Origin: Thermomicrobiales bacterium
GTDB lineage: Bacteria; Chloroflexota; Chloroflexia; Thermomicrobiales; UBA6265
Assembly (NCBI GenBank): GCA_037724245.1
Contig: JBBJOX010000002.1
Location: forward strand, 1 to 32,296
Direction: 5' to 3'
DNA length: 32,296 nt
Under the pieces are notes generated by a model. The model worked only from the letters and a program-made list of their open reading frames with translations. It was not told the origin of the DNA and did not search any database. The position numbers were made by a program, and so were the translations under genes. Below are positions 2,958 through 6,598 of this stretch, in pieces. The first letter of the stretch is position 1. The number at the start of each line of letters is the position of its first letter.

Positions 2958-4403
2958 TCAGGTCGAACTGCCTCGGGCGACTCGCGGGCGCAGGTTCATC
3001 GAGTCGAGCGCGGCGACGAGGGCGGCGCTGATCACGAGATCGTCGTGGCCATCGCTCTCGGGTACGGACCAGCGCAGGATGTTGCCAGGCCCGTTCATCA
3101 CCTGAAACGTCGTCGCCCGCATCTGGGCAAGGAATTCACGCGATTCGATCGCGTCATCGAACCGATAGTCACGAAAGCGGCCGGCGTCGATCAGGCCAAT
3201 GAAATCCCAGCCGAGCTGACTCTTGCTCGATCCCGTGAACAGGAATGGCAAGACGCGGATGCCACCTCGATCCAGCGTTGCCGCCAGAAACGAGGCCAGA
3301 CCGGCACCGATCCCGGTGGCATCGACGATCAACCAGGATGCCTTCCAGATGTTCCGGGCCAGATCGATGATCGTCTCGTGAAGCGCCGCATGACGCTGCC
3401 CGGTCCAGAGCCGACGGTCGACGACGCGATACACGGCGCGACCATCGGGACGTTCCTGCGTGTCGACCTCGACCACGGTCAATGCCGTGCTGTCGCGGCG
3501 CGAGCTGCTGGCGAAGGCGAGTGGCCCGCTTCCGGTTTCTTCCTCACCGGCAACATCGAGGAGCAGGGCATAACGCTTCCCCGGTGTGCCAGAGGTCTGG
3601 CGAGGGTGATCGCCTTGCATCTGGGCGAGACGATGCTCCGGGAAAAGACCGCCATCGCTGTCCAGTTCCTCCAGGCAGTACTCGGTGCGAACAAAGGGAT
3701 GTTCCTCCCCAAGTTGCTGCATGCGTGCCCGCACTCGCTCTCCGTAGACCGGAACATCTGCTGCCACGATTTGCCATGGAACGAGAAAAACACGCTGCGT
3801 GCCGTCGCGCGCTTCGAGGATGCGAAGGTGTCGCATCTGCCGCGCGAGCAAGGTCGAACTGCTCCAGACTGTGCCCAGAAAGAGGGTTGTGGCGTTGGTA
3901 CTGGCCGCCATCGGATCGAACACGGCGTCCCAGACATCCGGTTGAATGTCCTGCGCCTCGTTGGCGACCAGCAGGAGATCGGCAGTTTGGCCACGGGCGT
4001 TGGCTCCGGGCGCTGCCGAAACGAACCTCGCCCTGGCCCGACCGATCTGCGTGATTCCAGCGGCCGTACTCGTCAAGCAGGCAGTCAATGGATTCCCGCG
4101 CAGGCGATCGCGCAGGCGATCGCGGCTGAGTTCCGCCTGCGGTCTCAGCGTCGGTGCCGCAACCACGATCGTGCCGCCACGCTGTGAAAACCTCAACAGC
4201 AAAAGTGCCGTCAGTTGCGCCAGCATCTCGTCCTTGCCGGCCTGGCGCGAAAAGACGATCGCGAACTGGTGTCCGCGCTGGTTAATCACGCTGTCGAGGA
4301 TCGCCTGAGCCGGGATCTGCTGATAGGGGCGCAGGGTGTGCGACATCAGCAATGACGAGAAGATATCGATGTCGCTGACCAGTCGATGAATTGCCCGGTT
4401 CAC
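2958..4403 (-). CDS. phage terminase large subunit (TerL)-like ATPase/nuclease, orphan
   Basis: 481 aa. Deviant Walker A FSRQAGKDE, Walker B-like DLLLVANEAQD, then RNaseH-like nuclease motifs ALLLDVAG, WLIVDATGIGAGLASFL and DGHDDLVISAALVA. The GTG start overlaps the upstream stop (GTGA). Confidence 0.8.
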   Translation of the reverse strand: MNRAIHRLVSDIDIFSSLLMSHTLRPYQQIPAQAILDSVINQRGHQFAIVFSRQAGKDEMLAQLTALLLLRFSQRGGTIVVAAPTLRPQAELSRDRLRDRLRGNPLTACLTSTAAGITQIGRARARFVSAAPGANARGQTADLLLVANEAQDIQPDVWDAVFDPMAASTNATTLFLGTVWSSSTLLARQMRHLRILEARDGTQRVFLVPWQIVAADVPVYGERVRARMQQLGEEHPFVRTEYCLEELDSDGGLFPEHRLAQMQGDHPRQTSGTPGKRYALLLDVAGEEETGSGPLAFASSSRRDSTALTVVEVDTQERPDGRAVYRVVDRRLWTGQRHAALHETIIDLARNIWKASWLIVDATGIGAGLASFLAATLDRGGIRVLPFLFTGSSKSQLGWDFIGLIDAGRFRDYRFDDAIESREFLAQMRATTFQVMNGPGNILRWSVPESDGHDDLVISAALVAALDSMNLRPRVARGSST

Positions 4404-4672
4404 CCGCCAAGCACACGGCTGACGATATCGATCACGATCGCGCCGATAAGCACGAACACGAGATTGTTCAGTTTGCTCTTGATGTCGCGCACATCTTCGG
4501 AAATCGATTCGACCATCTGCCGGGTCACCATTTCGTAGCCGGATGGTTCATGCGAGGTCGAGCCCTGGTTAGGGTTGGCCTGTTGCAGCCGGCGGATACG
4601 TTCGACCTGGGCGCGGAGGGCATCACCCGACGGATCGCGGTGGGTTCCGCCGGGAAGCAGGGTGAGCGTCAT
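4400..4672 (-). CDS. small tail-anchored membrane protein, coiled-coil N-terminus plus one C-terminal TM (XhlA-like architecture)
   Basis: 90 aa. The polar/charged N-terminal part (ALRAQVERIRRLQQ, SEDVRDIKSKLNN) is followed by LVFVLIGAIVIDIVSRVLGG. ATGA overlap with the upstream gene and GTGA overlap with the TerL-like gene. RBS AAAGGA. Confidence 0.6.
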   Translation of the reverse strand: MTLTLLPGGTHRDPSGDALRAQVERIRRLQQANPNQGSTSHEPSGYEMVTRQMVESISEDVRDIKSKLNNLVFVLIGAIVIDIVSRVLGG

Positions 4673-5082
4673 TGCTGATCCTTTCGGGGGTGATCGATCG
4701 GATTCGTAATCGGCGCCAATCCGCCGAGTTCATCCAGCGCCTTGCTGAGTTCGTCGAGAATGTCGCTGGCCGATTGGCCGGTGAGTTCGTGGTGGGCCTG
4801 AACGGTACGCAACGTGACCGAGACGACGCGAGCGACGTTCATGGCGAGTCGGTTCAGGTCGTCTTCCTCGGCCAGTAATCGGGCGAGGACGACGCGCAGC
4901 GAGCCAATTTCCTCGGACAGACCGAGTTCGGCGAATTGCTCGACGGCCTGGGAGAAGATCGAATTGAGATGTTCGCCGTAGAGTGCTCGATAGTTTCCGT
5001 CCTGCAGACGCTGCACGAATTCCTGACGACGGGCCAAGGCGTTTGCCCGCGCGGTCGCGTTGGTGGTGGTTTTGGCTGACAT
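4669..5082 (-). CDS. hypothetical all-helical protein, first gene of the TerL-like operon (a TerS-like role is possible but unsupported)
   Basis: 137 aa with protein-like composition. A strong RBS (GGAGGGA) lies just upstream of the ATG, and the stop overlaps the next start (ATGA). I recognise no motif. Confidence 0.6.
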   Translation of the reverse strand: MSAKTTTNATARANALARRQEFVQRLQDGNYRALYGEHLNSIFSQAVEQFAELGLSEEIGSLRVVLARLLAEEDDLNRLAMNVARVVSVTLRTVQAHHELTGQSASDILDELSKALDELGGLAPITNPIDHPRKDQQ

Positions 5083-5100
5083 GGTCCCTCCGGAGTGAAC

Positions 5101-5114
5101 AGAACATATGTTCT
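5101..5114. promoter_or_regulatory. LexA (SOS) box, Gram-positive/Cheo type GAAC-N4-GTTC
   Basis: Perfect 14-bp palindrome AGAACATATGTTCT, 18 nt upstream of the ATG at 5082. Extra GAAC/GTTC half-sites occur at 5097-5100, 5121-5124 and 5133-5136. Confidence 0.6.
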
Positions 5115-5383
5115 ATTTCTGTTCTGATATTCGAACGCGCTGCCGGGTGCGGTCTGCGCCAGACGAACCCGTGCCTCGTGCACTCGCTACCGGATCGAGG
5201 GAACCACTGGCAACCCTGACGCGTTTAGACCTTGATTGCAGCGATGTCGCGACACATCGAACGCATGACTTTCGTTCGCAGCGGGGTACCGAAACGTCGA
5301 TGAGACGCCTGAAGTACCATTGCTTGCTGCGAACCGCCTTATCGGTCGCACGGGTCTTATTTGGAGAAGGAGGGATCATCTCC

Positions 5384-5941
5384 ATGCGGAAACTTTTGAC
5401 AGGTCTGTTCGCATTACTGATGCTCATCGGGAGCTCAGCTGGTGTGATGGCCGCGCAAGACGACGAAGCAACACCGGCAGACGATACAACTGCCGAAGCT
5501 GGCGAAGTGAATCCACGGGATCCACAGATTGGTGATCCGGTCATCTATTACAGTGAAGAGGGTGATCCTGTTGCCCAGTTCACGGTGACCGCCGTCGAAG
5601 CTGGCTGGGAGGGATACGATGAGTATTCCGAGCCACCTGCTGGGTCGCAGTATGTTGTGGTCTCGATGTCAGTCGAAAACCTGACCGAGCGCAGCACCTT
5701 CGAAGTCAGTGAGTATCGCTTCAGCGTTCAGGACAACCTTGGTTACCTCTATGGTTCGCCATACGTGAGCCCCGAGGAAGATCTGGATCCACCGCTGATC
5801 GAGAGTGATATCTCGCTCGAAGGTGAAGCCGTCGAAGAGTTCTCGCTCGTCTTCCTCGTGTACGAAGATATTGGCCTGAACTACCTCTACTACTCGGACA
5901 GCGGAATTCTGCTAACCCTGGTTGATCTCTCGGAGATCTAG
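5384..5941 (+). CDS. secreted DUF4352-like beta-sandwich protein
   Basis: An internal ATG at 5384, preceded by GGAGAAGGAGGGA, gives MRKLLTGLFALLMLIGSSAGVMAAQDD, a signal peptide. The body fits the DUF4352 pattern (GDPV..., QYVVVSMSVENLTERSTFEVSEYRFSVQDNLGYLYG). The upstream 92 codons of the track ORF are Arg-rich and not protein-like. Confidence 0.75.
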   Translation: MRKLLTGLFALLMLIGSSAGVMAAQDDEATPADDTTAEAGEVNPRDPQIGDPVIYYSEEGDPVAQFTVTAVEAGWEGYDEYSEPPAGSQYVVVSMSVENLTERSTFEVSEYRFSVQDNLGYLYGSPYVSPEEDLDPPLIESDISLEGEAVEEFSLVFLVYEDIGLNYLYYSDSGILLTLVDLSEI

Positions 5942-6049: not shown

Positions 6050-6598
6050 ATGCGACGCTTGTTCGGAGGACTGCTGATTCTGATAGTTGCGGCCGCGCTG
6101 ATGCTTCCCGGATCAATGACTGCGGCAACACTCCAGGAATCGACACCTGTTTCCCGCGGTGGCGGGGATGTTCAGCCGGGAGAACCGGTTTCCTACATCA
6201 GTGAATCCGGAAGTGAAATAGCGACGCTCCAGGTAACGCAAGTTGTGCGACCCTGGGACGAATTTGATGAATTCTATGAGCCGACAACCGGTACCGAATA
6301 TGTTGCCTTTCAAATAGAAGTGACCCACCTTGGTCGACGCGGCGATCTCGTGATTCGCGGATCCGACTTCCGACTCCAGGATGTCGATGGATTTCTGATC
6401 GGCGAGGCGTTTGCCAATGCCGTCGATGATGCGGAACTGGCGCCGACCGAAGATGATTTGGCGATCCCATCCGGGGAAACCATGCAGGTTGTCGTGGTCT
6501 TTCAGATAATCGAGGGAATCGATCTCAGCAATCTCTACTGGCTTCCCGAATACGACCGAATGATTACCGTGGCCGATCTTTCCAGCCCCGAGGAGTAG
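6050..6598 (+). CDS. secreted DUF4352-like beta-sandwich protein (paralog of 5384-5941)
   Basis: 182 aa. Signal peptide MRRLFGGLLILIVAAALMLPGSMTAA, and the same layout as the upstream gene (GEPVSYISESGSEIATLQVTQV..., EYVAFQIEVTHLGRRGDLVIRGSDFRLQDVDGFLIG). RBS CAGGAG. Confidence 0.8.
   Translation: MRRLFGGLLILIVAAALMLPGSMTAATLQESTPVSRGGGDVQPGEPVSYISESGSEIATLQVTQVVRPWDEFDEFYEPTTGTEYVAFQIEVTHLGRRGDLVIRGSDFRLQDVDGFLIGEAFANAVDDAELAPTEDDLAIPSGETMQVVVVFQIIEGIDLSNLYWLPEYDRMITVADLSSPEE

Follow-up and report, generated by a model that had tools for sequence, protein, structure and literature searches.

A predicted LexA operator ahead of a stand-alone terminase operon in a Thermomicrobiales bacterium

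The perfect 14-bp palindrome AGAACATATGTTCT at positions 5101-5114 of the DNA analyzed here (a contig stretch of 32,296 nucleotides from a Thermomicrobiales bacterium, referred to below as the window) is, with a probability that we put at about 0.8, a LexA operator that would repress the operon p137-p90-TerL and be relieved by DNA damage. This candidate SOS operator, to which as a palindrome no strand is assigned, is marked by its symmetry, by its conservation in relatives, and by its score in a matrix derived from imuA promoters. Its sequence, read directly, agrees with the Bacillus-type consensus CGAACRNRYGTTYC at 12 of 14 positions, the core being perfect and the two mismatches being the outer bases; the letters, coordinates, and match count reported in an earlier note on this DNA were all verified. 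The proposal made there, that a Cheo-type LexA operator serves the operon of the 137-aa gene, is well supported, in that the box is conserved in diverged relatives and the same type of box is found in imuA promoters.

The box is in a 301-nt gap between two divergent start codons, one at 5082 (minus strand) for the 137-aa protein and the other for a secreted DUF4352 protein (5384-5941, plus strand; Pfam DUF4352), whose gene is the first of two tandem paralogues, the second (6050-6598, plus strand) being DUF4352-like with a weak match to phrog_806. It is located 19-32 nt upstream of the p137 ATG and is separated by 9 nt from the ribosome binding site, GGAGGG (5086-5091, minus strand), which was read in the sequence 3 nt before the ATG. 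The operon begins with p137 (4669-5082, minus strand), an open reading frame for an all-helical protein of 137 residues that belongs to a 23-member family found upstream of TerL. It is followed by p90 (4400-4672, minus strand), an open reading frame for a 90-residue protein with a C-terminal hydrophobic anchor that is kept between p137 and TerL in 22 loci, and by TerL (2958-4403, minus strand), an intact terminase large subunit of 481 residues recognized by Pfam Terminase_6C and phrog_2. Because the stops and starts of these three minus-strand genes overlap, the start of p90 overlapping the stop of p137, they are taken to form one operon. Control of the divergent DUF4352 gene by the box is unlikely, because 270 nt separate the box from the DUF4352 ATG.

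Taken by itself, the core GAAC-N4-GTTC is not significant, because 0.55 occurrences are expected in the 32.3-kb window against the one observed and 41 of 100 shuffled windows contain at least one. It is through its score in the imuA matrix, its promoter-proximal position, and its recurrence in related loci that the box rises above chance. The relatives were obtained by a search of genome contigs with TerL, which gave 39 loci with identities of 43-70%, all from Chloroflexota (Thermomicrobiales, Sphaerobacteraceae, and MAGs of Chloroflexia or Chloroflexota), and homologues of p137 and p90 are present upstream of TerL in most of them. It should be noted that genes in these loci were called by a simple GC3-based scheme, which is crude and leaves several small ORFs unannotated. 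At the same place, just upstream of the operon's first gene, an exact GAAC-N4-GTTC is present in 16 of the 26 testable loci (including L007, L008, L009, L014, L015, L019, L022, L024, L033, L035, L036, L037, L039, L040, and L043); a box with one mismatch occupies this place in L011, and one precedes p137-like genes in L006, L030, and L041. The aligned boxes give the consensus AAATAGAACATATGTTCTATTT, also written nAAATAGAACATATGTTCTATTTn. The other 10 testable loci, which have enough upstream sequence, carry the operon without any box, and the predicted control of the operon by the box is thus widespread, not universal. Since only about 0.005 cores are expected per 300 nt, the recurrence of the box cannot be due to chance. 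The intergenic DNA around the boxes is not alignable between relatives, and p137 is only 31-43% identical in three of them; the box is nonetheless conserved in orthologous promoters, as is expected of a LexA operator. A contig from another sample (L001) differs from the window at 4 of 2459 positions (window positions 4831, 5100, and 5377-5378); the base directly flanking the box, 5100, is one of those changed, and the box itself is intact.

The proposed link between this motif and LexA runs through the imuA-imuB-dnaE2 cassette of the Thermomicrobium lineage, which was used as the reference SOS operon and which comes from the same order as the closest relatives of the window, although from a different family. 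The LexA motif of Dehalococcoides ethenogenes, a member of the Chloroflexi, is reportedly GAAC-N4-GTTC (from a study of 2002). The same motif, GAAC-N4-GTTC, is that of Gram-positive bacteria (PMC3323433), and regulation of the imuA-imuB-dnaE2 cassette by LexA has been described in many bacteria (PMC6511836). Thermomicrobium roseum DSM 5159 has a 918-kb megaplasmid (NC_011961), which was read as a whole and contains 17 exact cores, of which 14 are well inside coding sequences according to the annotation tables. The remaining three are in an unannotated gap, right where a hypothetical gene starts, and upstream of an operon annotated as "recombinase A", hypothetical, and "error-prone DNA polymerase". 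This operon is imuA-imuB-dnaE2, its related copies having RecA_N, IMS_C, and DNA_pol3_alpha domains, and it is the only place on the megaplasmid where an exact core is in a clear promoter position. The first 500 kb of the megaplasmid contain no SOS gene and no site, the imuA cassette being located at 517-522 kb. Separately, at position 833013 of the NC_011961 record (L061:33013), a perfect CGAACACTGGTTCG coincides with the 5' end given in the annotation for a small hypothetical gene that precedes an amidase and a dCTP deaminase; were this start misannotated, the sequence could represent a second SOS site.

The T. roseum imuA promoter, CTCTTGACTGCGAACAGGTGTTCGACTATGATGCATACGAACGCATGTGCGA, consists of a −35 element (TTGACT), a 17-nt spacer that holds a perfect box, a −10 element (TATGAT), and then a second, imperfect box, the layout being TTGACT-GC-GAACAGGTGTTC-GAC-TATGAT. 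This design is retained in nine metagenome relatives whose ImuA proteins are 67-99% identical. The imuA promoters of the Thermomicrobium lineage (L055, corresponding to positions 516647-522260 of the NC_011961 record, and L064-L076) are near-consensus promoters with a perfect box in the spacer and a second box after the −10. Distant cassettes of the ImuA family (49-53% identity) have the arrangements TTGACTTA-GAACCCTTGTTC-TATTAT, which is of the AGAAC...GTTCT type, TTGATTAC-GAACATATGTTC-TACTAT, in which GAACATATGTTC is the 12-mer of the window's box, and TTGATTAC-GAACATCTGTTC-TCCTAT. The ImuA family was found solely in Thermomicrobium-like organisms. In a matrix trained only on sites from Thermomicrobium-lineage imuA promoters, the box of the window scores 18.7 bits, compared with 15.5-23.8 bits for the training sites themselves and 10.7 bits for the next best site in the window; the best sites of shuffled windows average 11.8 bits, and one of 50 shuffles reached 20.6 bits. 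The imuA sites include, at each position, the base found in the window's 14-mer. In the boxes of the element to which the operon belongs, the outer bases are A/T, and in most imuA sites they are C/G.

The distribution of strong sites in the related loci is confined in a way that bears on the identity of the binding protein. In 560 kb of these loci, every site that scores at least 14 bits with a matrix of the operon boxes falls within a phage-derived element, and these sites either precede the TerL operon or the portal gene (L019:554) or adjoin an amidase gene (L006:6646 and L007:19187). At the last two sites, the box has a divergent N-acetylmuramoyl-L-alanine amidase-like gene on one side and a small gene on the other; in L007 the latter encodes a protein of 91 residues with a CPFC motif, lies behind a TTGACA, and had no match in a PHROG search. 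A further box precedes a small pre-portal gene (L006:837) and has the core of the T. roseum imuA site. About 400 kb of flanking DNA in the related loci showed no SOS gene outside the element with a box, tblastn of all fetched loci with E. coli LexA and a RecA fragment returned nothing except ImuA, and the window contains no SOS genes, lexA and recA included. A search of PLSDB with E. coli LexA gave no Thermomicrobiales record among the matches listed. Two other matches were considered as operators and rejected: L008:5082, which is inside the capsid gene, and L035:19272 (ACGAACAATCGTTCCG), which lies between a membrane protein gene and a gene that, from its N-terminal sequence, presumably encodes a Rex-like repressor, and which is probably not an SOS site.

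It could be argued from this confinement to the element, and from the A/T outer bases and A/T-rich flanks that its boxes share and that are mostly absent from imuA sites, that a dedicated regulator other than LexA binds the box, for example a repressor or activator of phage type whose gene is elsewhere in the element, and that the box only resembles a Cheo box. We consider this improbable. No regulator gene is conserved beside the operon, where the neighbors are DUF4352 proteins and housekeeping genes, and operators specific to an element usually diverge together with their repressor, whereas here the core is invariant between operons whose TerL proteins are 51-72% identical. Moreover, the same 12-mer and the AGAAC..GTTCT variant occur in imuA promoters, and the site at L006:837, within the element, has the exact T. 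roseum imuA core, CGAACAGGTGTTCG.

The recurrence of the motif ahead of portal and amidase units, as well as ahead of imuA cassettes that are unrelated to packaging, also weighs against a second reading, in which the palindrome is not a transcriptional operator but a site used by the packaging machinery (pac-like, for a small terminase) or a recombination site. Phage packaging sites are often in or near the small terminase gene, and the palindrome does adjoin a gene in the small-terminase position; it is, however, always upstream of the start codon at promoter distance, and about one third of the relatives keep the operon without it, so that such a function seems very improbable. Least probable of all is that the palindrome acts as an RNA hairpin in the 5' leader, affecting translation or stability, or is a functionless chance palindrome: the 14-mer, if transcribed, could fold into a stem of 5 bp and a loop of 4 nt, and the core is by itself expected about once in two windows, but the GAAC and GTTC arms are exact in at least 16 diverged genomes with no compensatory changes, which is the signature of a DNA site bound by protein, and the box recurs at the same position where about 0.005 would be expected per locus.

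The region around the box contains other half-sites, GAAC at 5097-5100, GTTC at 5121-5124, and TTCGAAC at 5130-5136, all of which are present where the earlier note placed them. The suggestion that they might admit additional LexA dimers or alternative registers is not borne out by the relatives. The GAAC at 5097-5100 is GAAT in the near-identical L001 and has no counterpart in the other relatives, and the GTTC at 5121-5124 is not conserved among them. The third half-site is conserved and reads GCGTTCG on the operon strand (5132-5138, minus strand), at a distance of 18 nt upstream from the box. In 14 of 17 loci, GTTCG is found at −32 to −9 from the box, whereas shuffled sequences gave 0.39 on average and 3 at most. 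Its spacing from the box varies from 14 to 21 nt, and GCGTTCG is also present upstream of the operon in L025, L026, L034, and L042, which have no box. A second LexA site at 5132-5138 was therefore rejected, this being a lone half-site at a variable distance that is present in box-less relatives; for the last two reasons, GCGTTCG is probably an element associated with the operon's promoter. Either the transcription machinery or an activator could recognize it, and it may be a promoter or activator element shared by the phage-like system. On the operon strand, the upstream region strongly favors GTTC over GAAC, with GTTC at −91, −55, and −23 in the window.

No sigma-70 consensus promoter and no terminator was found between 4900 and 5500, in agreement with the lack of a convincing −35/−10 pair remarked on earlier, and none of the RNA runs contains the locus. 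Because only 9 nt separate the box from the ribosome binding site, transcription is expected to start at or upstream of the box. The homologous operon of L041 has the classical layout with the box embedded in the promoter spacer, as in imuA (TTGACTTATTA-GAATATATGTTC-TACTAT).

The palindrome, read as an operator of the GAAC-N4-GTTC type (Gram-positive/Chloroflexi) for the host's SOS repressor, LexA, is placed between the putative upstream promoter element GCGTTCG and the ribosome binding site of p137-p90-TerL. A bound LexA dimer would cover the −10 and start-site region, or the first transcribed bases, and thereby keep the operon off; upon DNA damage, activated RecA would induce the self-cleavage of LexA, and the packaging genes would be expressed. 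The presence of the same box ahead of the portal gene, the amidase/lysis unit, or the whole head operon in relatives suggests that these units may together make up a small SOS regulon for a phage-like particle. The sequence, position, and conservation of the box, and the occurrence of the same box in promoters of a canonical SOS operon of this order, are observed directly; from them we infer that LexA is the binding protein, that its binding represses, and where transcription would start.

p137 had no match in Pfam, in PHROG, or among PDB sequences; its AlphaFold model is helical with a pLDDT of 73, and comparison of the model with PDB folds also gave no match. By position alone, p137 is a candidate for the small terminase subunit. 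Most p137 homologues (L007, L008, L014, L018, L022, L024, L034, and L035) have an N-terminal Cys-rich motif, RCxxxGCxRF...C..H, that looks like a zinc ribbon; the p137 of the window is without it. The ATPase motifs of TerL are unusual yet conserved in the family, the viral contig L005 included: Walker A is SRQAGKDEM, with Asp after the GK, and the Walker B region is LLLVANEAQD. The best match of TerL among cultured phages is from a Bacillus phage, with only 30% identity.

In the window, the operon stands alone among housekeeping genes. A P-type ATPase gene is downstream of the TerL operon, pantothenate genes and then 2-oxoglutarate dehydrogenase genes lie beyond the two DUF4352 paralogues, and no portal, capsid, or tail gene is present in the 32 kb. 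A DUF4352 gene is divergent from the TerL operon in 14 related loci, and a tandem DUF4352 pair is also found in L007, L019, L025, L039, and L043; one or two secreted DUF4352 genes, often in tandem, are kept in this divergent arrangement across many genomes. The TerL trio is found alone in the window and in L007, L043, L015, L040, and L022. In L018, L030, L027, and L004, p137 and TerL are included in a compact cluster of 10-12 kb between host genes, and the clusters of L030 (∼10 kb) and L018 (∼11.8 kb) consist of p137, TerL, a scaffold-like protein, capsid, portal, adaptor, a protein of 600-700 residues, lysin, and holin. Families shared among the related loci are an SPP1-type portal, an SU10-type adaptor, a Mu-F-like head protein, a holin, an amidase (weak Amidase_3 match), and the 600-700-residue protein, which has no matches; an HK97/SU10-type major capsid protein is also present (phrog_212, E = 3e-78). 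No integrase, repressor, or replication genes were seen in the related compact clusters, for which the gene calling was crude.

The dN/dS of TerL is about 0.17-0.21, indicating purifying selection, and TerL identities (70-72%, and 80% between L006 and L007) track those of adjacent housekeeping genes, f12 (panE) and f22. The neighborhood of pantothenate genes is common to the window, L006, L007, and L043. Because of these three observations, long vertical inheritance of a domesticated phage-derived particle system appears to fit better than a series of independent prophage remnants. Purifying selection and vertical inheritance with the host are expected of gene transfer agents (GTAs), and the observations on TerL agree with both. 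The operon appears to be part of an old, chromosomally inherited, phage-like particle system of the Thermomicrobiales, and the regulated element looks like a GTA.

Operators of the GAAC-N4-GTTC class include the Cheo boxes bound by LexA (DinR) in Bacillus subtilis and other Gram-positive bacteria and by the LexA of D. ethenogenes. The box of the window (AGAACATATGTTCT, compared with CGAACATATGTTCG) is like them in its core, its A/T-rich center, and its promoter-proximal position, and presumably also in being released by the RecA-stimulated self-cleavage of LexA. It differs in that its outer bases are A/T instead of C/G, no −35/−10 is recognizable around it, its target is a phage packaging module instead of repair genes, and the binding of LexA is predicted. 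With the Thermomicrobium form of imuA-imuB-dnaE2 it shares the order and the type of box, one cassette having GAACATATGTTC and another the AGAAC...GTTCT variant, but in the cassette a box fills the spacer between TTGAC(T) and TATGAT and a second box follows the −10, whereas the window has a single box after GCGTTCG.

Phage genes are directly repressed by host LexA in several systems, such as the late genes of the Bacillus thuringiensis phage GIL01, rstA of CTX-phi, and tum of coliphage 186. The arrangement proposed here is similar in that an operator for the host LexA would be located on a promoter of phage origin, so that damage would switch on phage functions with no phage repressor involved. 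GIL01, CTX-phi, and 186 are, however, self-replicating phages or prophages, whereas the operon of the window is alone among housekeeping genes and appears to be vertically inherited, and no lysogeny or replication genes were seen in the compact clusters of its relatives.

Another comparison is with GTAs. The production of RcGTA in Rhodobacter capsulatus depends on LexA indirectly, via repression of cckA (PMC6363796), and GTA-like packaging has been described in Faecalibacterium (PMC12946183). The relatives of the window resemble these systems in having a head, packaging, and lysis set of ∼10-12 kb in which no replication or integration genes were seen; the set is under purifying selection, diverges in step with the host, and in many genomes is distributed over several loci. 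They differ from RcGTA in that the predicted operator in Thermomicrobiales is on the structural operons themselves, and in that the proteins are podovirus-like (SU10-type capsid and adaptor) and the system is known from its genes alone. A broader reading, which we advance tentatively and hold to be possible but rather doubtful, is that the box belongs, as one operator, to an SOS regulon common to the order, and that this regulon drives a domesticated GTA-like particle system of podovirus origin in Thermomicrobiales/Chloroflexia, whose packaging, head, portal, and lysis genes are vertically inherited, scattered over the chromosome in many species, and linked by LexA operators on each unit and by the shared GCGTTCG. 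If this were true, DNA damage would trigger particles that carry host DNA, and the system would be the first of its kind within Chloroflexota, and also the first case of a GTA-like element controlled directly by LexA.

The predicted operator is in itself ordinary, being of the known Gram-positive/Chloroflexi GAAC-N4-GTTC class with A/T outer bases; what appears to be new is its target, a packaging operon that stands alone, is vertically inherited, and belongs to a GTA-like element of Chloroflexota. The box would mark an intact and strongly conserved stand-alone terminase operon as DNA damage-responsive in an order of soil and desert bacteria that has been little studied. The imuA promoters provide reference operators for Thermomicrobiales from which the SOS regulon of the lineage may be reconstructed, and the boxes on the terminase, portal, and lysis units offer a testable handle on domesticated phage-like DNA packaging, possibly that of a gene transfer agent.
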